Assembly (NCBI GenBank): GCA_038200275.1
Contig: JBBPYC010000025.1
Location: forward strand, 10,759-74,758
DNA from: Burkholderiales bacterium
Lineage (GTDB): Bacteria; Pseudomonadota; Gammaproteobacteria; Burkholderiales; Burkholderiaceae_C
Reading direction: 5' to 3'
Length of the DNA stretch: 64,000 bases
The notes below the pieces were generated by a model. The model was not told the origin of the DNA, searched no databases, and saw only the letters and a list, made by a program, of their open reading frames with translations. Position numbers and translations under genes: made by a program. Below are positions 24,946-46,280 of this stretch, piece by piece. The first letter of the stretch is position 1, and each line of letters begins with the position of its first letter.

Positions 24946-25879
24946 ATGGACCGCCTGCTGTCAATGCGCACGTTTGCCGAAGTGGTGAATCAGGGCGGCT
25001 TCGCGCAGTCTGGAGCTATCGCCAGCGGTTGTCACGCGGCTGGTCGGGGACCTCGAAGCGCATCTGGGCACGCGGCTGCTGCAACGCACTACGCGCCGCG
25101 TTGCCCTCACCGAAGCGGGTAACGCGTACCTGGCGCGCCTGCGGCCGATCCTGGCCGATCTGGACGAAGCGGAGCAACTCGCGCAGGCGCAGACCGTATT
25201 GATGAGTGGCACCATCCGGATCGCTGCCACGCCGTCGCTTGCGCTGCACCTGCTGGCGCCGCTGGCGGCCGAGTTCCGCATCGAGCACCCGCAGGTCACG
25301 CTCGACGTGCATGTGGAGATATCGGCAGAGGCCTTTGTGGAGGATTTCGACCTGACGCTGCTGGTGGCGGACTCGACGTTCGACGCCGCCGTGGTTGCGC
25401 GTCGGCTGATCGATGCGGACAAGCTGCTTTGCGCGGCGCCGCGTCATCTGCAGTGGTTCGGCACGCCAAAGGCGCCAGCCGATTTGTCCAAGCACCCGGC
25501 CGTGACGCTGAAAATCCCGACCATGCCGGTTGGCGGAAGCTGGCGGATCGAGCGGATCGCCGATGCAGTCGTCGTCGAAGTCGCCATGCAAAACGCCTTC
25601 GTGAGCAACCACGTCGAGGTGTTGCTGCGTGCGGTGCTGGACGGCTGCGGCATTGGCGCGCTGCCGGTGCATCTGGTGGCGCCGTACATCGCACGTGGCG
25701 AACTGGTGCACGTGCTGCCGGGCTGGCGCACCGGCCACAGCGTGGTCTACGCGGCGCTGCCGAGCCGCAAGTTCCTGCCAGCGCGGACGCGTGCGTTGCT
25801 CGATTTTCTGCTCAAGCACACGCACTCGTTGCGCGATGAGCCACCAGCACCCCGGGTGTGGATGCAGATCGGGTGCTGA
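24946..25879 (+). pseudogene. LysR-family transcriptional regulator, frameshifted inside the winged-HTH
   Basis: Frame 1 from ATG 24946 reads MDRLLSMRTFAEVVNQGGFAQS... and then becomes nonsense up to a stop at 25122. The +1 frame opens after the TGA at 24986 and reads SLELSPAVVTRLVGDLEAHLGTRLLQRTTRRVALTEAGNAYL..., continuing into the complete effector domain (ORF 25199..25879). About 3-4 residues of the GGFAxAARxLxLSP consensus are missing. Confidence 0.7.
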
Positions 25880-26115
25880 CCCGCTGCAGCGGCAGAGTTC
25901 CGCTCTATTAGACTCAATTTTGACAATTATTAATTGCTTTAAAAGCAGTTTCTATATGAAATCTGCAATAGTAAAGTTCACCCCATCGATGAGCCGAACC
26001 CACAGTCGACCGACTCACCGAGGCTGGACAGACGGGATCAACGAAGCCCGCCCTCGCCCGGGAAACTTTTCAATCGACTTCAAGTCAGTGAACTTTATTT
26101 TTGCAGGACATCATC

Positions 26116-26574
26116 ATGAACACGAAATTCGCATCCACTCTCGTCATCGCTGCCGCCCTGGGCGCTTCCAGCAGCTTTGCCTTTGGCACCAGCAGCGACA
26201 ACGGTGCCTGGTCGGCTGGTAACGGCAGCCCGGTTGCGTTGAATCCGAACGGCGACACCGTCACCCAGCCGGCATTCCAGAGCATTGCCAGCCGCGGCCA
26301 GGTCAGCAGCGGCGTTGCGCAAAACCGCGCCGTGCTGACGGCTGTGGCGATCAATCCGCAAGGCACGACCGTGGTCGAGCAGTCCGGCTTCCATGCCGAG
26401 CAAAGCCGTGCCGCTGTGGCACAGAGCGTGGCACGCGACCGCACCGTGCTGTCGGCCGTGGCGCTGAACCCGAACGGCGACGACGCACTGCCCCCATCGA
26501 CTGCGCAACGCCTTGTGACCCAGCAGCCGTTGCTGGCCACCAGCGGGCGCAGCAGCCGCTTTGGCGCTGAATAA
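26116..26574 (+). CDS. small secreted repeat protein (possibly DUF4148-like)
   Basis: The start is trimmed to MNTKFASTLVIAAALGASSSFA (signal peptide). Two repeats of about 25 aa are present: SRGQVSSGVAQNRAVLTAVAINPQG and SRAAVAQSVARDRTVLSAVALNPNG. The family assignment is tentative. Confidence 0.6.
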   Translation: MNTKFASTLVIAAALGASSSFAFGTSSDNGAWSAGNGSPVALNPNGDTVTQPAFQSIASRGQVSSGVAQNRAVLTAVAINPQGTTVVEQSGFHAEQSRAAVAQSVARDRTVLSAVALNPNGDDALPPSTAQRLVTQQPLLATSGRSSRFGAE

Positions 26575-29419: not shown

Positions 29420-30628
29420 ATGAGCAACACCCATCCAACCGACCCTGTCGTGATTGTCGGCGCCGCCCGCACGCCCATGGGCGGTTTTCAAGGCGACTTC
29501 GCCACGCTGGCTGCGCATGACCTGGGCGGCGCCGCGATCCGTGCCGCGCTGGAGCGCGCCGCCGAGGGCTCGAAGTTCAAGCCCGAGATGGTCACCGAAG
29601 TGCTGTTCGGCAACTGCCTGATGGCCGGGCAGGGCCAAGCGCCTGCAAGGCAAGCCGCATTCAAGGGCGGCCTGCCGAACAGCGCGGGCGCGGTCACGTT
29701 GTCGAAGATGTGCGGCTCCGGCATGCGCGCCGCGATGTTCGCGCACGACATGCTCAAAGCCGGCAGCCACGACGTGCTGGTCGCGGGTGGCATGGAGAGC
29801 ATGACGAACGCGCCGCACCTGCTGCCCAAGGGCCGCAGCGGCATCCGCATCGGCCATGACCGCGTGCTGGATCACATGATGCTCGACGGCCTGGAAGACG
29901 CTTACGAAGCGGGCCGATCGATGGGCACCTTCGGTGAAGACTGTGCGGCGAAGTACGACTTCACGCGTGCGCAGCAGGACCAGTTCGCGACCACCAGCGT
30001 GCGGCGCGCGCAAGAGGCCACCAAGTCCGGTGCGTTCGCCGACGAGATCACGCCTGTCATGGTCAAGACTCGTAAAGGCGACGTCGAAATCAAGATCGAC
30101 GAAGGCCCGGGCAAGATCAACGTTGACAAGATTCCGACGCTCAAACCTGCGTTCAAGAAAGACGGCACCGTCACAGCCGCCAGCAGCTCTTCGATCAACG
30201 ACGGTGCCGCTGCGCTTGTGATGATGTGTGCATCCACCGCGCAAGCCCTTGGCTGCAAACCGCTCGCACGCATCGTCGCGCACGCCACGCACGCGCAGGA
30301 ACCCGAATGGTTCGCCACGGCGCCGATCGGCGCGACAAGAAAACTGCTCGACAAAGCTGGCTGGAAGGTCGAAGACGTCGACCTCTGGGAGATCAATGAA
30401 GCGTTCGCCGTCGTGCCGATGGCGCTGATGACCGAACTGAAGCTGTCGCATGACATCGTCAATGTGAACGGCGGCGCCTGCGCCTTAGGTCATCCGATCG
30501 GCGCCAGCGGCGCGCGCATCATGGTCACATTGATTTATGCGTTGAAAAATCGCAGCTTGAAAAAAGGCGTGGCGACGTTGTGCATCGGCGGTGGGGAGGC
30601 GACTGCCATCGCGTTGGAATTACTATGA
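29420..30628 (+). CDS. acetyl-CoA C-acetyltransferase (thiolase II)
   Basis: The ATG at 29420 is preceded by AAGGAG (29403-29408). Thiolase signatures are present: VTLSKMCGSGMRA, NVNGGACALGHPIGASGAR, CIGGGEA. Confidence 0.92.
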   Translation: MSNTHPTDPVVIVGAARTPMGGFQGDFATLAAHDLGGAAIRAALERAAEGSKFKPEMVTEVLFGNCLMAGQGQAPARQAAFKGGLPNSAGAVTLSKMCGSGMRAAMFAHDMLKAGSHDVLVAGGMESMTNAPHLLPKGRSGIRIGHDRVLDHMMLDGLEDAYEAGRSMGTFGEDCAAKYDFTRAQQDQFATTSVRRAQEATKSGAFADEITPVMVKTRKGDVEIKIDEGPGKINVDKIPTLKPAFKKDGTVTAASSSSINDGAAALVMMCASTAQALGCKPLARIVAHATHAQEPEWFATAPIGATRKLLDKAGWKVEDVDLWEINEAFAVVPMALMTELKLSHDIVNVNGGACALGHPIGASGARIMVTLIYALKNRSLKKGVATLCIGGGEATAIALELL

Positions 30629-30681
30629 AAATAGTAGCTATCTGCGCAACAAACGTAAGCCCCTACAGCCGATTTGTCTTG
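30623..30681 (+). repeat. AT-rich intergenic element, copy 1
   Basis: CTATGAAAATAGTAG (30623-30637) and CGATTTGTCTTG (30670-30681) recur at 40828-40842 and 40856-40867. Confidence 0.5.
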
Positions 30682-30739
30682 AAAAATTAGCGTTTCCCAT
30701 GGTTCGACTCACCCTTTGTCCAATTCAGGAGCAACTCCT

Positions 30740-32002
30740 ATGAACACAACCAAGCCTTTCGTATGTCGCTCGATCGCCGCCGCTCTGTCGACGACGCTGC
30801 TCGCCGCCGTACCGGTGCATGCTCAGACGCGCGACGAAGCGCTGATGTCGGCCGCGACCGCTGAGAAGTCCGCCGTCATCGGCACGCTGGAAAAGCTCGT
30901 CAACATCGAAACCGGCACCGGCAACGCGGAGGGCCTTGCAGCCTATGCAACGCTGCTCGAAAGCGAGCTGCAAAAGCTCGACTTTCAGGTGACACGCCAC
31001 AAGGCCGCAGAAGGCAAGGTCGGTGACAACCTGGTGGGCACCCGCAAAGGCAAGGGCGGCAAGAACATCTTGCTGCAGTCCCACATGGACACCGTGTATT
31101 TGAAAGGCATCCTGGACAAGGCGCCGTTCAAGGTCGAAGGCGACAAGGCCTACGGCCCCGGCATTGCCGACGACAAGGGCGGCAACGCGGTCGTGCTGCA
31201 CGCGCTGAAGCTGCTGCGCGAGCGCGGCTTCGAGGACTACGGCACGATCACGGTGCTGTTCAACACGGACGAAGAAAAAGGCTCGTTTGGCTCGCGCGAT
31301 TTGATCCAGAGCGAGGCGGCAAAGGTCGACTACGTGCTGTCGTTCGAGCCCACCGCAGCAGGCGACGAGAAGTTCTCGATGGGCACGTCCGGCATCGCCT
31401 ACGTGCTGGCCGAAATCAAGGGCAAAGCGTCGCATGCGGGAGCTGCGCCTGAGAAAGGCGTGAACGCGTTGGTCGAAGCAGCCGATCTGGTGCTGCGCAC
31501 GCAGGACATCGACAACAAGGACAAGGGCCTGCGTTTCAACTGGACCATTGAGAAAGCCGGCAACGTCTCCAACATCATCCCGGCCGAAGCCACGATCAAC
31601 GGCGACATGCGCTATGCGCTGGTCGAAGACTTCAATGCAGCCGTCAAGACGCTGCAGGAAAAGGCGCAGCAAAAACGCTTGCCACAAGCGGAAGTCAAGA
31701 TCACCGTGACCAAAGGCCGGCCCGCATTCAACGCTGGCGAAGGTGGCAAGGCGCTGATCGACCAAGCCGTGGCGATCTACAAGGAAGCCGGCGGCAACGT
31801 GGGCGTCGAGCCCCGCACCGGCGGCGGCACCGATGCGGCCTATGCGGGCCTGACCAACAAGGCCGTGATCGAGAGCCTGGGCCTGCCGGGCTTTGGTTAT
31901 CACAGCGACAAGGCCGAGTATGTCGATCTCGAATCGATCCCGCGTCGGCTCTACATGGCGACCAAGCTCATCATGAACCTGGGCAGCGGCACCACGAAGT
32001 AA
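30740..32002 (+). CDS. cpg2: M20-family glutamate carboxypeptidase (carboxypeptidase G2-like), periplasmic
   Basis: The ATG at 30740 follows CAGGAG. A signal peptide is present. There are long identical runs with CPG2 as I remember it (LEKLVNIETGTG, SHMDTVYLKGIL, VEGDKAYGPGIADDKGGNAV, YGTITVLFNTDEEKGSFGSRDLIQ, ESLGLPGFGYHSDKAEYVD). Confidence 0.85.
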   Translation: MNTTKPFVCRSIAAALSTTLLAAVPVHAQTRDEALMSAATAEKSAVIGTLEKLVNIETGTGNAEGLAAYATLLESELQKLDFQVTRHKAAEGKVGDNLVGTRKGKGGKNILLQSHMDTVYLKGILDKAPFKVEGDKAYGPGIADDKGGNAVVLHALKLLRERGFEDYGTITVLFNTDEEKGSFGSRDLIQSEAAKVDYVLSFEPTAAGDEKFSMGTSGIAYVLAEIKGKASHAGAAPEKGVNALVEAADLVLRTQDIDNKDKGLRFNWTIEKAGNVSNIIPAEATINGDMRYALVEDFNAAVKTLQEKAQQKRLPQAEVKITVTKGRPAFNAGEGGKALIDQAVAIYKEAGGNVGVEPRTGGGTDAAYAGLTNKAVIESLGLPGFGYHSDKAEYVDLESIPRRLYMATKLIMNLGSGTTK

Positions 32003-40072: not shown

Positions 40073-40617
40073 TCGCGCAGGTCGGCGGGCCACGGCTCGG
40101 TACGCGCCGCAAACGTCGCCCCGTCGCCCGCATACAGCGCGCGGGCGGCCTCCTCATAGCCCGGTGCATCACCGAGCATCGTCAGCATGAAGCGGTCCGC
40201 GGCCATCTGCGCCTGCCGCGCCGCATCGCGCCCGCGATTGGCGATGCGCGCTGCGTCCACCAGCTTGCGCAGCGTGACCGAGGCGCCGCCCGGTTGGCTG
40301 GCAAGCCATTCCCAATGTCGCGGCAGCAACGTGACTTCCCGCCCGACCACGCCGAGCTTGGGCCGCCCGGCTGCGCGCGGTGCGGCGGGGTCATCGTTTG
40401 GCCCAGAAGTGGCTGTCGGTGTGGGTAGGAAGCGCGCCGCCACGTCTGCCTCGCTGCCGCGCAGATCGAACTCGACCATGCGGCCGGTGGCGTCATCGAA
40501 CGTAAGCACGGTGGCGCCCGGGTCGGCCTCAAGCGTGCGTTTGACGACCCGCGCGACTTCGGCAGGTGCGCCCGATGCAAGGAAGCGGTGGTGGGTAAAG
40601 GCAGTGCAAGTGGTCAT
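39964..40617 (-). CDS. DUF2239 family protein (tentative)
   Basis: 217-aa ORF. The family call is from memory only. Its 3' end overlaps the 3' end of the convergent ychJ-like gene by 109 nt. Confidence 0.5.
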   Translation of the reverse strand: MTTCTAFTHHRFLASGAPAEVARVVKRTLEADPGATVLTFDDATGRMVEFDLRGSEADVAARFLPTPTATSGPNDDPAAPRAAGRPKLGVVGREVTLLPRHWEWLASQPGGASVTLRKLVDAARIANRGRDAARQAQMAADRFMLTMLGDAPGYEEAARALYAGDGATFAARTEPWPADLRDHARRLAAAALGSVDVEDDAVDTAPAAAIDKSSPST

Positions 40618-40827
40618 GGCAGCGAGAGCAAATAGTCGAGCTGTATATATTAGCCGGATAAAATACTATCCATAATTTACCAGGGTGAAACAAGTGCGGC
40701 CTTACGAGAGACACGCGACCCGTTCAAACCGCGTTGCATGGGACTAGGAACGATGGCTTGCTCCCCTGTCACGCTGGATTCTTCCAATCAAAAACCCAGT
40801 ATCCGCACGTGCTCAAATGCTGTCTAG

Positions 40828-40867
40828 CTATGAAAATAGTAGTAACCCAGCATTTCGATTTCTCTTG
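40828..40867 (+). repeat. AT-rich intergenic element, copy 2 (shorter)
   Basis: CTATGAAAATAGTAG (40828-40842) and CGATTTCTCTTG (40856-40867). The order matches copy 1 at 30623-30681, but the spacer is about 19 nt shorter. Confidence 0.5.
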
Positions 40868-40891
40868 GGCTGCATCCCGCCCGCCAGCTTT

Positions 40892-41587
40892 ATGACCGCC
40901 ATACCCACCCTCCCTTTCCAAGCCGTGCTGTTCGACTGCGACGGCGTGCTCGTCGACAGTGAAACCATCACGAACAGCGTGTTGCGTGACATGCTCGAAG
41001 AGCTCGGCTGGTCGATGACGCTGCCCGAGAGCATGGTGCGATTCGTCGGCAAGGCGGTGCGGGACCAGAGCGCGTTGATTGAAGCGCACACGGGCAAGCC
41101 GTTTTCCGAAAGTTGGCTGGCTGCGTTCTGGCAACGGCGCAACGCCGCGCTGGAGACCTCCCTGCTGATCATCCCCGGCGCACTGGAGGCGGTGGCCGAA
41201 TTGCACGATCGGCTCGATGGGCGCATCGCGTGTGCATCCGGCGCAGACCGCGGCAAGGTCGAATTGCAACTGCGCAAAGTGGGCCTGCTGCGCTACTTTG
41301 AAGCGCGCATCTTCAGCGGCCACGAGACACCGCGCAACAAGCCGCACCCGGACGTGTACCTGGCCGCTGCGGCAGCACTCGGCATCGATCCGGCGCACTG
41401 CGCCGTGGTGGAGGACACGGCAACTGGTGCCGCCGCCGGGCTGGCCGCCGGCGCGACGGTGTTCGGCTACTGCCCCGGCGGCTTGGGTCACGACAGCGCC
41501 GCCGCGTTGCGTGCAGCCGGCGTGCAACACCTGTTGGGTGACATGCAGGCGTTGCCGAGCCGGCTGGCAGGCATAACCATTGGTTGA
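40892..41587 (+). CDS. HAD-superfamily hydrolase (beta-phosphoglucomutase-like subfamily IA)
   Basis: ORF 40817..41587 trimmed to ATG 40892. Contains the DxD motif FDCDGVLVDSE and the later VEDTATG. Confidence 0.85.
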   Translation: MTAIPTLPFQAVLFDCDGVLVDSETITNSVLRDMLEELGWSMTLPESMVRFVGKAVRDQSALIEAHTGKPFSESWLAAFWQRRNAALETSLLIIPGALEAVAELHDRLDGRIACASGADRGKVELQLRKVGLLRYFEARIFSGHETPRNKPHPDVYLAAAAALGIDPAHCAVVEDTATGAAAGLAAGATVFGYCPGGLGHDSAAALRAAGVQHLLGDMQALPSRLAGITIG

Positions 41588-41784: not shown

Positions 41785-42975
41785 TCAGTCACCAGTTGTT
41801 ATCGGAACCCGCGCCGCGAACCGCCGCTGCAACGCGATCGATGCGCCAAGCAGCGCAACCGCCAGCACCAGCGCCAGCGCCACCGTCGCCTCATGCCCCC
41901 ACCAGCCGATCGACAGCGCAAACGCGATCGGCGCTGCGGCCGACAGCATGAAAGCCGGCTTCAAAATCCCTCCGACGATGCGACCGTAGCTGCCAGCATC
42001 GAACAGCAGCAACGGCATCGCGCCGCGCGTGACGGTCGCAATCCCGTTGCCGGTGCCGTAGAAGAACGCGAACACCCCCGCGCCGATCAGCGTGCTGCCA
42101 GCCAGCAAATAAAGCACGAAGCAGCCGCACAACAGCGACGCCGGCACCAGGTTCAACTTCACTACGTCGATGCGCCAGCCCCAGGCCACCACCCAGGCGC
42201 GGCCTGAGAACTGACCCACGCCGAACACAGAAGCCAGTGCGACGGCTGTGGCTGCGTCCCAATCGGCGCCGCGCAGCAATTCGATGAAGTGCGCCGCCAG
42301 CCCGATCTGCATGAACATCACGGCCGCTGCAATGAAGCCGAACAGCCACTTGTCGGCATCCCAATGGATCGATGCGGTGTCGGCAACCTGCCCTGCAAGT
42401 GGCCGCGGTGGCGTCTGCAACGGACCGTCCGCAACCCGCGCAGGAATTGCAAGATGCAACGCCGACGTGAGCAACAGCAGCGCCGCATACACCCACAACG
42501 CGCCGCGCCAGCCGATGTGCTGCATCAGAAACTGGCCAAGCGGCCAGAACGCAGTCGACGCGAAGCCGCCAAACAACGTGAGCTGCGACATCGCGCGCTT
42601 GGACGATGCGCCGCCCAAATGCGCCAGCGTCGCAAACGCCGCGTCGTACAACGCGAGCCGCATGCCGCAACCCAGCAGCAGCCAGCCCAAAAAATATTGC
42701 ACCACGCCGTGTGTTGTCGCCAGCACCGCGCAGCCCGCCGCGCCGCACCAGCAGCCCGCCATCATCGCGCGGCGCCCGCCGTGCCGATTGATCCAGCCGC
42801 CGACGATGCCTGAAGTCAACCCCATCACCACCAGCGCGAGCGAAAACCCACCCTGCACGAAAGCCGACCGCCAGCCGAACTCTGCGCCGATCGCCTGCCC
42901 GAACACCCCGATCAGGTAGTGCATCGCGCCCCAGCCGACGAGCTGCGAAATGCCCAGACAGACGATCAGCCGCAC
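41785..42975 (-). CDS. MFS transporter
   Basis: 396-aa polytopic ORF with about 12 TM segments. Confidence 0.8.
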   Translation of the reverse strand: MRLIVCLGISQLVGWGAMHYLIGVFGQAIGAEFGWRSAFVQGGFSLALVVMGLTSGIVGGWINRHGGRRAMMAGCWCGAAGCAVLATTHGVVQYFLGWLLLGCGMRLALYDAAFATLAHLGGASSKRAMSQLTLFGGFASTAFWPLGQFLMQHIGWRGALWVYAALLLLTSALHLAIPARVADGPLQTPPRPLAGQVADTASIHWDADKWLFGFIAAAVMFMQIGLAAHFIELLRGADWDAATAVALASVFGVGQFSGRAWVVAWGWRIDVVKLNLVPASLLCGCFVLYLLAGSTLIGAGVFAFFYGTGNGIATVTRGAMPLLLFDAGSYGRIVGGILKPAFMLSAAAPIAFALSIGWWGHEATVALALVLAVALLGASIALQRRFAARVPITTGD

Positions 42976-43050: not shown

Positions 43051-43332
43051 CTAGCTGTCGATGGATGTGAGCCGCACGGGTGCGTCGAGTTCCTCCGGCA
43101 CCTCGTCATGAACGTCCGCGCCCGGGTCCGAGATCGGCCGCAGCTTGCTTGCGTGGCAGTAAAACGTCCAGCCTTCGAACGCGACGTCGTGGTAGGTGCC
43201 GGGCAGATAGCGCCAGTCCGGGGCCTCGTAAGCGGCCGAGACGACCTCGACGATGCGGCCGATCGCATCCTTCGCAGGCGCTTCGGCCAAGCAAGTCGAG
43301 TCGACGTAGCACAGGGTTCCGATGCGGATCAT
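43051..43332 (-). CDS. hypothetical protein (93 aa)
   Basis: ORF with genome-typical GC and an acidic C-terminus. Its ATG (43330-43332) overlaps the TGA (43329-43331) of the upstream 88-codon ORF. No family was recognised. Confidence 0.5.
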   Translation of the reverse strand: MIRIGTLCYVDSTCLAEAPAKDAIGRIVEVVSAAYEAPDWRYLPGTYHDVAFEGWTFYCHASKLRPISDPGADVHDEVPEELDAPVRLTSIDS

Positions 43333-43595
43333 GGGTGTTCTCTACAGTTGTCTACAACGGCCCAATGGCAGCTGTTTGATCGATTCTGGCGTGTGAGTTG
43401 CTGAGATGACAGCTGAGGGATTGAGCACTTTCGCTGCGGGAAGCAATCAGCGATCAACTGCGGTATGGTTTCGAAGCGCAACGACCACTGCCTGTTGTTT
43501 GAATCCAGCACATAAGAAATCAGTTTGGCACTGTGAGGTGACAAGCGCAAAGCCGTCTGCCTACCCTTGCTTCGATAACTGTTGCCCCAATTCAC
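43329..43595 (-). CDS. hypothetical small protein (88 aa), existence uncertain
   Basis: The only long open frame across the roughly 50% GC spacer. Its GTG start (43593-43595) overlaps the TGA of the 241-aa gene, and its stop overlaps the ATG of the 93-aa gene. The product is S/Q/R/N-rich with no recognisable domain. Confidence 0.3.
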   Translation of the reverse strand: MNWGNSYRSKGRQTALRLSPHSAKLISYVLDSNNRQWSLRFETIPQLIADCFPQRKCSIPQLSSQQLTRQNRSNSCHWAVVDNCREHP

Positions 43596-44317
43596 CGATG
43601 CTTGCCCGCACTGCGAAGCGCCGCACTTGCCTGTTGAATCACAGCGACTTCGTTGCAGGGGACTGACGCGAAATGCATTGTTCCGTCGGCTTCAAGGGCT
43701 ATTTGCTGGAGTTCAATGTTCGTATCGGACGCGACTCCAATCCACCACTGGGCACCACCATATACAACGCCGTAGCACCGTCTGCCGCCAAACTTGTTGG
43801 CTGTGAACTGCGACACCATCGAGATGGTTCGACCAGTCTCATGGTGGACTACAGCACACCCAAAAATCGGATAACGTTCTGCTGTGCCAGCGTCTTGATG
43901 CATCAACATCTTACGTAGGCGCTCTTCGTGCGGACCAAGCGAAACTTCAGCAAACATGGGCAGCGAACTGACGCTCGCTCGAAAAAGCACGCTGAGATGA
44001 AACAGCTTGAATGATGCGTAGTCAACCTTGATCGTCTCCATTCGCCCTGGTCGCCACAGGTATGGAAGAGGCCGGTTCTTTATCCAGGCTAGGTAGAAAG
44101 GTTTTTCGAAGCATTCATTGAAATGCTGCTCACAATCCTCACAGAAGAGATGCTCTCGAGCGCCGATTTGCAAGGAACGCCAGCCTCGCGAGCCCTGACC
44201 GTTGATTCCCATCATCTGCCGCTTTGCGTTGTATAGCTCGGCGTAGAGAAACTCTGGAACGACGTGCGAATTTCTTAGTTCGCCGTCTCGCTGGCATAGC
44301 TGACATTTCTTCAGCAT
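43592..44317 (-). CDS. hypothetical protein with N-terminal Cys4 / HNH-like (His-Me finger-like) motif and unknown C-terminal domain
   Basis: 241-aa ORF in a low-GC segment. The N-terminus reads MLKKCQLCQRDGELRNSHVVPEF...(40 aa)...FCEDCEQHFNE. GGGG lies 4-8 nt upstream of the ATG. Confidence 0.65.
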   Translation of the reverse strand: MLKKCQLCQRDGELRNSHVVPEFLYAELYNAKRQMMGINGQGSRGWRSLQIGAREHLFCEDCEQHFNECFEKPFYLAWIKNRPLPYLWRPGRMETIKVDYASFKLFHLSVLFRASVSSLPMFAEVSLGPHEERLRKMLMHQDAGTAERYPIFGCAVVHHETGRTISMVSQFTANKFGGRRCYGVVYGGAQWWIGVASDTNIELQQIALEADGTMHFASVPCNEVAVIQQASAALRSAGKHR

Positions 44318-44444
44318 AAAACCCCACTATCCAAGCTCTGTTGCTGGCGCGACCGATTGATTGCGATGGGAGCTTCAGAGTCACTCTCTACAAGCGATGT
44401 TGTAAGCCTTTCCCTGTCGGTCATATCCACAGCGCTGCACCTGT

Positions 44445-46280
44445 CTACCGCCCCACCGCGTACCCCTGCATCCCCCGCGGATTGGCTGCGGCCCGCAACA
44501 CCAGCCGTCCCTGCGCATCGCGCTCGCGGCTGCATGCCGACATCCGGCTCTCGGACCAAGCGTCACCGACCTTCACTTGGTGGCCGGCGCCCCGCAACTG
44601 CTGGATCACGTTGTCAGAAAACCGCGACTCCACCGTCAACTGATTCAACGTGGTCGCGCGCGGCCAGAACGATGAGGGGAAATGGTCGACGTGCCAAGCC
44701 GGTGCATCGATCGCTTGCTGCAGGTTCATGCCGTGCACGACATGCCGTATGAAAAACGCAAGCGACCATTGGTCTTGCTGATCACCACCCGGTGTGCCGA
44801 ACGCAAGATACGGCTCGCCATCGCGCAGCGCAAACGAGGGCGACAACGTCGTGCAGGGCGGCACGCCGGGGCTCAAGCTGTTTGGTGATTGGTCGTCCAG
44901 CCAAGTCATCTGCAGTCGGGTGTTGATCGAGAAACCCAGAGCCGGAATCACCGGGCTCGACGACAGCCAGCCACCCGACGGCGTGGCCGACACCATGTTG
45001 CCGTGCTGGTCGATCACGTCGATATGGCAGGTGTCGCCGACGAAGATTTCGCGCGCAGCCCATTCGGACACGGCGGGCAAGGTGGCGAACGTCGGCTCGC
45101 CGACGCCGAATCGCGTGTCTGCACTCAGCAAGGTGCGGCGCGCGACATCGAGGTCGGGCAGATGCGGCAGTTGCCCGAGCGGCGTGCCGGGCAGAAGCTG
45201 GGTGGCCGCACGGTCGGATACCTGTTGCCAGCGTTGGCTTAAATAATCGTCCGACAACAACGCGTGCTGCGTGGCGGGCACGGCAGCCGGTGCGGTGCCG
45301 TACCACGCAAGCCGATCGGCCAGCGCCAGCTTTGCGGCTTCTGCGATTTTGTGAACGAAGCCGGCCGTATGCGGCGCGTGCTGTTCCAGCGTCGCGCTGC
45401 GCAGCATGCCGAGTTGCTGCAACAACGACGGCCCCTGGCTCCAGAAGCCGCATTTGGCGACTGTATAGCGGCCGAAATCAAGCGTCAGCGGTGCTTCTAT
45501 GGTGGGCGTCCACTGCGCGAGATCGTCGTAGCGCAACAGCCCTTTGTTGGGCTGACCGGTGGTGTCGATGACGGCGGTGGTGCGGTAGTAATGGTCGATC
45601 TCGGTGGCTACGAAGCCCTGATACCAGCAGCGCAGTGCGGCGTCGATGACCGATACGCGGCTGCTGCTTTCGCGGTTCGCTTCCACCAACAGTCGCTCCC
45701 ATGTATCGGCCAGCTTGGGCAGACGAAACAATGCGCCGGGTTTGGGCGGGTGGCCACCGGGCAGCCACACCTCGGCCGACGAAGACCAGTGGGTACGAAA
45801 CAGATCCTGCACCGCATGAATGGCCTGCACCGCGCGGGGAATCAGCGGGAAGCCGTCGCGTGCGTAGCGGATGGCTGGCGCCAGCACGTCGTCGATCGAC
45901 CAGGTGCCATGGTCGCGCAGCAACGTGAGCCATGCACCGAACGCGCCCGGCACGGTGGCCGGCAACAGGCCGATGCCGGGGACTTGCTCCAGCCCCAGAC
46001 GCTGGAATGCCTGCACGGTCGCTTCCGCCGGTGCCACGCCTTGGCCACAGATGGAGGTAACGCGCCGCTCGCGTTCGTCCCAGAACAGAATCGGCGCTTC
46101 GCCGCCCGGGCCGTTCAGGTGCGGCTCGACCACCTGCAGCACGAAGCCACCAGCAACGGCCGCATCGAACGCGTTGCCACCACGTTCCAGCACGCCCATG
46201 GCGGTCTGCGACGCGAGCCAGTGGGTGGAGGCGGCCACGCCGAACGTGCCGACGATCTCGGGGCGGGTGGTGAAGGTCAT
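44445..46280 (-). CDS. gamma-glutamyltransferase family protein (no signal peptide)
   Basis: 611-aa ORF with GGT-family strings (AASTHWLASQ, GGNAFDAAVA, GDTCHIDVIDQHGNMVSATPSGG, which contains the nucleophile Thr context). Confidence 0.9.
   Translation of the reverse strand: MTFTTRPEIVGTFGVAASTHWLASQTAMGVLERGGNAFDAAVAGGFVLQVVEPHLNGPGGEAPILFWDERERRVTSICGQGVAPAEATVQAFQRLGLEQVPGIGLLPATVPGAFGAWLTLLRDHGTWSIDDVLAPAIRYARDGFPLIPRAVQAIHAVQDLFRTHWSSSAEVWLPGGHPPKPGALFRLPKLADTWERLLVEANRESSSRVSVIDAALRCWYQGFVATEIDHYYRTTAVIDTTGQPNKGLLRYDDLAQWTPTIEAPLTLDFGRYTVAKCGFWSQGPSLLQQLGMLRSATLEQHAPHTAGFVHKIAEAAKLALADRLAWYGTAPAAVPATQHALLSDDYLSQRWQQVSDRAATQLLPGTPLGQLPHLPDLDVARRTLLSADTRFGVGEPTFATLPAVSEWAAREIFVGDTCHIDVIDQHGNMVSATPSGGWLSSSPVIPALGFSINTRLQMTWLDDQSPNSLSPGVPPCTTLSPSFALRDGEPYLAFGTPGGDQQDQWSLAFFIRHVVHGMNLQQAIDAPAWHVDHFPSSFWPRATTLNQLTVESRFSDNVIQQLRGAGHQVKVGDAWSESRMSACSRERDAQGRLVLRAAANPRGMQGYAVGR

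Follow-up and report, generated by a model that had tools for sequence, protein, structure and literature searches.

A solo accessory gene with a candidate divergent His-Me finger in a low-GC islet of a Burkholderiales genome

Type IV (modification-dependent) restriction enzymes such as McrA are encoded by a single gene, have no methyltransferase and join an HNH domain to a separate recognition domain, and packaging-associated phage HNH proteins of the HK97 gp74 type measure about 120 amino acids (aa) and act together with the terminase. In the His-Me superfamily, a nearly invariant catalytic His lies at the C-terminal end of the first beta-strand, and an Asn or His in the first turn of the core helix binds the metal, often together with a polar residue at +4 or +8 (PMC5714182). 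Rst_DUF4238 (DUF4238, PF14022) has been described as a single-gene defence (Rousset et al. 2022, PMC9122126). We analyzed a stretch of 64,000 nucleotides (nt) from a Burkholderiales bacterium (GCA_038200275.1, contig JBBPYC010000025.1, positions 10,759 to 74,758), here called the window, in which a low-GC islet carries a gene for a 241-aa protein. An earlier reading made from the letters alone (the sequence-only reading) had described three chained orphan open reading frames (ORFs) of 241, 88, and 93 aa at this place as a candidate defence-type cassette. What we found is an uncharacterised candidate variant of the His-Me finger nucleases in a one-gene islet, an architecture not surprising in itself: the 241-aa gene is a solo, horizontally mobile accessory gene of a large, unnamed, and rare family. 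We propose, at a probability of roughly 45%, that its product is a stand-alone accessory nuclease, most likely serving a restriction-like or abortive-type defence, a reading in which we infer the activity, the substrate and the role.

The 241-aa family and its motif layout

The 241-aa gene was called as an ORF with an ATG start on the minus strand (43592..44317), and family, AlphaFold2, and selection data bear on it. Its product had 274 close homologs, which measure about 238 aa, carry no Pfam domain, and are all annotated as hypothetical proteins, and an exhaustive profile search returned 5,531 cluster representatives (759 at E <= 1e-30), nearly all of 235-260 aa and matched over their full length. 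The label of orphan was therefore wrong for 2 of the 3 ORFs, since the 241-aa protein has thousands of relatives and the 93-aa protein at least 86, every one of the latter from Variovorax, Comamonadaceae, or Burkholderiales. Two members of the 241-aa family seemed to bear N-terminal extensions or fused domains, which were rejected as miscalled starts, and apparent second copies in tandem were rejected as fragments.

Family members were identified in 88 of 185,579 species representatives, spanning at least 10 phyla, and the best genome match (66% identity) came from a metagenome-assembled genome of Desulfocapsaceae. The family was absent from the E. coli genomes searched and from 50,697 GenBank phage genomes, and it was found in 4 of 2.9 million viral contigs, with 5 weak matches in 72,556 plasmids. 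None of the three products of the islet region gave anything above threshold in Pfam, NCBIfam, and PADLOC scans, and the 241-aa protein belongs to no named family in these three collections; it matched phrog_19960 at 2e-21, and three PHROG families match in all. A literature search by locus tags and PHROG identifier returned nothing for the family.

Across 48 loci, the GC content of the gene averages 7 points under that of its flanks (Wilcoxon p = 4e-12), being more than 5 points lower in 31 of the 48 and more than 5 points higher in none. Differences between the window gene and an intact allele at a related locus, L146, numbered 47/25/104 by codon position, a third-position bias, and the gene is functional and under purifying selection. 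Clustering of the ORFs within +/-4 kb of 85 family loci gave no conserved neighbour; the 150 immediate neighbours of family genes matched 148 Pfam families, each in at most 3 proteins.

The motifs CQLC, SHVVPEF, and FCEDCEQH are present in the 241-aa protein as first described, with a spacing of 8 residues, and not 9, between C8 and S17. HNH_5 was the only recurrent Pfam signal in the family, with sub-threshold matches in 30 of 38 members of one set and 18 of 53 of another. These matches are colinear, residues 4-23 falling on profile positions 1-23 and residues 56-77 on positions 34-55 of 56. Because such recurrent colinear matches are all sub-threshold, we regard the family as a distant relative of HNH_5 and not a member of it. 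The resemblance to DUF4238 that had also been suggested was not recovered in any of the 91 member scans (38 + 53), even at E <= 10.

Residue conservation was counted over the 53 diverse members, which share 28-59% identity. The putative zinc-knuckle cysteines were kept almost throughout (C5 and C62 in 53/53, C8 and C59 in 52/53), S17, H18, and E71 were invariant (53/53), position 63 was Glu in 51 and Asp in 2, and position 67 was Asn in 30 and Ser in 14. H18 stands at the end of a predicted strand (residues 14-18), and E63, N67, and E71 are spaced as i, i+4, and i+8 along a predicted helix (60-80), so that H18, E63, N67, and E71 occupy the superfamily positions of the general base and the metal ligands (PMC5714182). 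The colinear matches and the invariant positions uphold the proposal of a zinc-stabilised His-Me finger of HNH_5 type with a non-canonical Ser-His and Glu, and residues ~1-80 fit a putative divergent Cys4-zinc (HNH_5-like) finger, as judged from sequence and model.

The AlphaFold2 model of the protein is a single globule (predicted local distance difference test score 94.1, predicted template modelling score 0.91), in which the N-terminal ~80 residues are followed by an alpha/beta domain of ~160 aa whose fold has no known match. A Foldseek search with the full model gave no match in PDB and only one uncharacterised Myoviridae protein in BFVD, and neither the protein sequence nor the family profile retrieved anything from PDB in sequence searches. 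The C-terminal region, earlier put at about 170 aa and said to match nothing recognised, thus has no PDB relative by fold or by profile. Near-invariant polar residues occur in this region too: K104, H107, R113, H130, R135, and W191.

The ORF chain and the history of the site

All three minus-strand ORFs (44317..43592, 43595..43329, and 43332..43051) and their 4-nt overlaps, GTGA and ATGA, were found again, as were the stop of the gamma-glutamyltranspeptidase (GGT) gene at 44445 and the start of the MFS gene at 42975. Scans likewise agreed that the window lacks a tRNA, flanking repeats, and an integrase, and they detected no consensus sigma-70 promoter, terminator, or Rfam family around the islet. 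The drop in GC content was confirmed by computation for 43333-44444, the 93-aa ORF standing outside it. Over 200-nt windows, GC was 0.51-0.57 across ~43300-44400 and 0.65-0.70 in the flanks; the 1,112 nt of 43333-44444 have a GC of 0.526 against a window mean of 0.635 +/- 0.023 (z = -4.8), the lowest of any stretch of such length in the 64 kb. GC at third codon positions (GC3) is 0.57 in the 241-aa gene, 0.84 in the 93-aa gene, 0.79 in GGT, and 0.82 in MFS.

Because the trough ends where the 93-aa ORF starts, the islet extends over about 43333-44444 and not over 43051-44444 as first drawn; the 93-aa gene (43051..43332, minus strand, ATG start) has a host-like GC of 0.65 to go with its host-like GC3. 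Within the islet, a low-GC leader of 127 nt (44318..44444, minus strand, GC 0.53) runs from the GGT stop to the start of the 241-aa gene, which it accompanies in related occupied sites, and a low-GC spacer of 259 nt (43333..43591, minus strand, GC 0.51) lies 3' of the gene and holds the 88-codon GTG frame (43595..43329). Upstream stands the backbone GGT gene (44445..46280, minus strand), whose orthologue at a second related locus, L007, carries PF01019. We read the islet as a one-gene accessory unit of ~1.1 kb, made of leader, 241-aa gene, and non-coding tail and set between GGT and the 93-aa gene. Three further short low-GC spots in the window (25721-26324, 30320-30924, and 40459-41060; minimum 0.51-0.53 in 400 nt) are intergenic or divergent-promoter regions and starts of secreted-protein genes, with nothing unusual about them.

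The 93-aa gene belongs to the conserved backbone of Comamonadaceae genomes, and its evolution is independent of that of the 241-aa gene. This backbone gene was identified in 48 metagenome loci and in L008 and L009 with no trace of the 241-aa gene, and L008 keeps the block of 93-aa, MFS, and HAD genes without the islet and with another gene upstream. In at least 22 of the 48 other loci (L102-L137), a gene for a HAD-family hydrolase of ~228 aa precedes the 93-aa gene with an ATGA stop/start overlap, a pairing lost in the sub-clade of the window, L007, L146, and L008. Because the HAD stop overlaps the 93-aa start elsewhere, we interpret the ATGA at the 93-aa start as a legacy of an older operon of these two genes. 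Compared with L007, the 93-aa gene differs at 5/0/11 sites by codon position, and its product matched no Pfam, NCBIfam, PADLOC, or PHROG family.

The 88-codon frame is probably no protein-coding gene, and from its substitutions it appears to evolve like non-coding DNA. Its translation had no homolog among 5.8 billion proteins, and its one match in the PADLOC models, MTase_II (E = 0.0076, 13 bits), was at chance level. Against L146, substitutions are flat by codon position (24/32/29; 9 synonymous and 36 nonsynonymous), the spacers of the two loci are only ~47% identical with no coding-type substitution pattern, and a nucleotide block shared near the 5' end of the bridging frame is read in a different frame in each. 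At L007 the frame is disrupted, having a 1-nt indel and an insertion sequence (IS) within it; an interruption at an orthologous locus was what the sequence-only reading had itself named as telling against the frame. That the frame might be a remnant of the HAD gene usual before the 93-aa gene was considered and rejected, the two having no similarity.

A three-gene operon of the 241-, 88-, and 93-aa products, acting in toxin-immunity or defence and coupled through translation, would nevertheless find several features in its favour. The 4-nt overlaps are real, no terminator-like site separates the genes, and an open bridging frame spans 88 codons in the window (43329-43595) and 81 codons in L146 (928-1173), the two intact occupied sites, an event for which chance gives ~2% for one frame; moreover, the 2 bridging peptides align (score 71 vs 26 +/- 5). 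These features are outweighed by the host GC3 of the 93-aa gene, by its ~50 loci without the 241-aa gene and its normal coupling to HAD, by the history of the 88-aa frame just described, and by the 85 family loci, at none of which did anything resembling the 88-aa or 93-aa product stand beside the 241-aa relative. Nor does the family show an excess of downstream ORFs that overlap the stop of the 241-aa gene (8/39 vs 20% in shuffled controls). We therefore consider such an operon very improbable, and the three ORFs form a chain in their coordinates but not in their biology. The idea of a horizontally acquired cassette holds for the 241-aa gene, which is horizontally acquired accessory DNA, and fails for the three-gene unit, which consists of this gene, a frame with no homolog or coding signature, and an independent backbone gene, with no co-inherited partner in 85 loci. 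That the frame is open in two diverged lineages may reflect chance or selection for translation through the spacer.

The intact allele in L146 occupies the same place, from the GGT 3' end to the 93-aa gene, at 76% aa and 75% nt identity; a GGT C-terminus is also found upstream of it, and the window leader aligns with the L146 leader inside a single high-scoring segment pair of 75% identity. L007 holds a decayed copy with a 681-nt deletion at a CTGAAGC/TTGAAGC microhomology. There, GGT homology runs up to window position 44377 and passes directly into the final 104 nt of the 241-aa gene with 46 nt of its tail, 145 of these 150 nt being identical; next comes an IS, inserted in the islet tail and carrying DDE_Tnp_1 transposase genes, and backbone homology returns from window position 43426. 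The decayed islet takes up L007 2962-4905, corresponding to window 43427-43695, and the leader segment at window 44432-44377 is 54/56 identical to L007, where it abuts the gene remnant.

Identity to L007 reaches 96-97% in the islet pieces, 94% in the 93-aa gene, and ~90% at the GGT 3' end, falling to 77-88% further out, with the GGT gene as such at 86-90% nt identity; a peak at the islet is consistent with recombinational exchange of the segment. Gene calling split the L007 GGT gene into three, possibly as a result of assembly indels or of pseudogenisation. A search of ~50 loci carrying the 93-aa backbone gene turned up no empty GGT|93-aa site, so the end-points of the insertion cannot be fixed to the nucleotide. 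The 241-aa gene was kept under purifying selection in two lineages and decayed in a third, which is the turnover expected of an accessory gene.

Genomic contexts and proposed function

Some relatives of the gene stand among defence and mobile genes, which counts in favour of the defence proposal. In L139 (6536-8723), the homolog P0064 lies directly downstream of a Shedu-type SduA_C nuclease gene, in an island that also holds BrnA, ParE, RHH-PIN, and a CAP12/PCTIR TIR protein. Other contexts include a type I restriction-modification (R-M) system with an inovirus, HsdM/S with RepC, an HNH_2 enzyme, a Phd antitoxin, and a gene flanked by an HTH_3 protein and a Polbeta nucleotidyltransferase. Among the 150 immediate neighbours, matches to defence models are in the minority and include Mrr_cat (twice), a CBASS cyclase, MADS, and Mokosh.

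Mobile contexts also occur, and they raise the possibility of a selfish or mobile-element endonuclease, either a free-standing homing-type HNH that copies itself into cut empty sites or a stranded phage or plasmid accessory nuclease (packaging- or recombination-associated HNH). One relative adjoins a resolvase on a conjugative plasmid, and distant relatives (25-34% identity) on the IMG/VR viral contigs L145 (5064-9719) and L142 (199-2787) are encoded just ahead of a large terminase and portal, and just ahead of a capsid/protease gene, a position classical for packaging-associated phage HNH proteins. The three matching PHROG families and the single Myoviridae structural relative point the same way, as do the solo, compact unit with neither integrase nor flanking repeats, the occupation of the GGT|93-aa site in three lineages, and the identity peak to L007, which resembles co-conversion or recombinational transfer. 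Homing, however, should recur at one conserved target, yet the 85 loci have no common neighbour; the family is rare on phages, viral contigs, and plasmids; a single ancestral gain of the gene, with later vertical inheritance and decay, accounts equally well for the three occupied sites; and no empty site is at hand for comparison. We consider a selfish endonuclease unlikely.

If the product is a defence nuclease as we propose, C5/C8 and C59/C62 would bind a structural zinc, H18, which closes strand beta-1, would serve as general base, and the catalytic divalent metal would be ligated by E63, from the first turn of the core helix, by N/S67 (+4), and by E71 (+8). The two halves of the predicted finger would be separated by an elaborated omega-loop of ~35 residues, and the C-terminal domain may provide substrate recognition or regulation. 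The target would be invading DNA, cut for example by a modification- or structure-dependent nuclease. No methyltransferase, antitoxin, or other conserved partner accompanies the gene; the protein would therefore be a self-contained nuclease, with a specificity or mode of activation that presumably spares the host.

Several results weigh against a defence nuclease. The HNH_5 (PF14279) gathering score of 27.5 was not reached by any family member, the matches scoring 12-19 bits (best 18.7, E = 0.0017), and the window protein itself had no HNH_5 match at all. The isolated N-terminal domain ranked T4 endonuclease VII first in a Foldseek search of PDB, non-significantly (E = 0.8, TM 0.29), and hhalign of the family profile against the T4 endonuclease VII sequence gave a probability of 0.5%. 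Both the Ser before the catalytic His and the Glu, in place of Asn or His, at the first turn of the helix are atypical, so that nuclease activity could be altered or lost. On the side of the defence role, a scan against the 5,027 defence-protein models of PADLOC-DB v2 at E <= 10 matched zero families for the 241-aa protein, as for the 93-aa protein. The defence, toxin-antitoxin, or mobile genes seen in ~7 of 16 inspected contexts are a raw count without a genomic background, and about half of the inspected neighbourhoods consist of plain housekeeping genes, as in the window.

The same replacements by Ser-His and Glu, and the failure of any HNH model to pass threshold, would suit a non-nucleolytic protein, in which a degenerate His-Me or zinc-knuckle scaffold binds a nucleic acid or ligand in a regulatory role, or in which the C-terminal domain supplies an enzyme activity of its own. 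The Smad MH1 and ENPP nuclease-like domains are precedents for such use of the scaffold. Many copies lie among metabolic genes, and the near-invariant polar residues of the C-terminal domain (R113, R135, K104, H107, H130) come without a structural relative. Inactive His-Me fingers are on record, and the documented inactive groups lack the His (PMC5714182), which here is kept at the catalytic position in 53/53 diverse members. Positions i, i+4, and i+8 of the helix are moreover still acidic or polar, as expected of a working metal site, and an accessory, AT-shifted, patchy distribution is unusual for a metabolic or regulatory housekeeping role; a protein of this kind is in our judgment improbable, to much the same degree as a selfish endonuclease.

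A broader form of the defence proposal, in which a widespread single-protein immune nuclease with a re-wired finger (Ser-His base, Glu/Glu metal site) and a C-terminal sensor of a fold not in PDB acts alone against phages or plasmids, and in which the spacer frame stays open under selection, letting translation continue from the invading gene into the resident 93-aa gene, is more speculative and we hold it doubtful. If the protein is an active stand-alone defence nuclease, a compact single-gene system of ~720 bp would join the bacterial immune repertoire, with a family of thousands of sequence clusters in at least 10 phyla, and its new accessory domain fold and unusual Ser-His/Glu-Glu His-Me active site would interest nuclease enzymologists and tool developers. 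For genome scans, the locus indicates that ORFs chained by 4-nt overlaps within a compositional islet or next to it can combine a single invading gene with non-coding filler and a gene that was already resident, as with the ATGA junction of this islet, inherited from the older operon of HAD hydrolase and 93-aa gene.

Comparison with described nucleases and defence proteins

Among phage proteins, the HK97 gp74 type is approached by the distant relative whose gene directly precedes those for the large terminase and portal on a viral contig, whereas the window gene is chromosomal, encodes a protein twice the size, and has no phage genes nearby. Rst_DUF4238, too, is an accessory protein encoded by one gene, and it resembles the 241-aa protein in size and in having an N-terminal motif like H-x-V-P-x-F; DUF4238, to our knowledge, has no Cys4 knuckle. 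With McrA-type enzymes the family shares a single-gene, patchy, and horizontal distribution, at times beside other R-M systems. In contrast to McrA, its domain order is reversed, with the HNH-like part at the N-terminus, and, in contrast to Type IV enzymes in general, its C-terminal domain has no similarity to known modified-base readers; any dependence on modification would be pure inference.

T4 endonuclease VII and Hpy99I (Endonuclease_7, PF02945; PDB 1en7, 2qnf) have a His-Me finger braced by a Cys4 zinc site, and its elements come in the order that they have in the family. In endonuclease VII, these are C23/C26, D40-H41, C58/C61-N62, and E65, checked against its sequence, where the family has C5/C8, S17-H18, C59/C62-E63, and N67/E71. 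Endonuclease VII differs in its very short omega-loop and helical dimerisation domain, and its match here, as noted, is non-significant; nothing seen in the family points to junction resolution.

The closest likeness is to HNH_5 (PF14279) and the Group 1 His-Me nucleases (McrA, Cas9 HNH, MnlI; PMC5714182), with which the family shares a C-x2-C, a His that ends beta-1 and is followed by [IV]-[IV]-P, and a second C-x2-C at the start of the core helix; by analogy, a one-metal mechanism with His as the general base may operate, as in Group 1. Unlike HNH_5, the family has Ser for Asp or Glu before the His and Glu for Asn or His after the second CxxC, its omega-loop is ~20 residues longer in the AlphaFold2 model, with a helix and hairpin of its own, and its finger is fused to a conserved C-terminal domain of ~160 aa.

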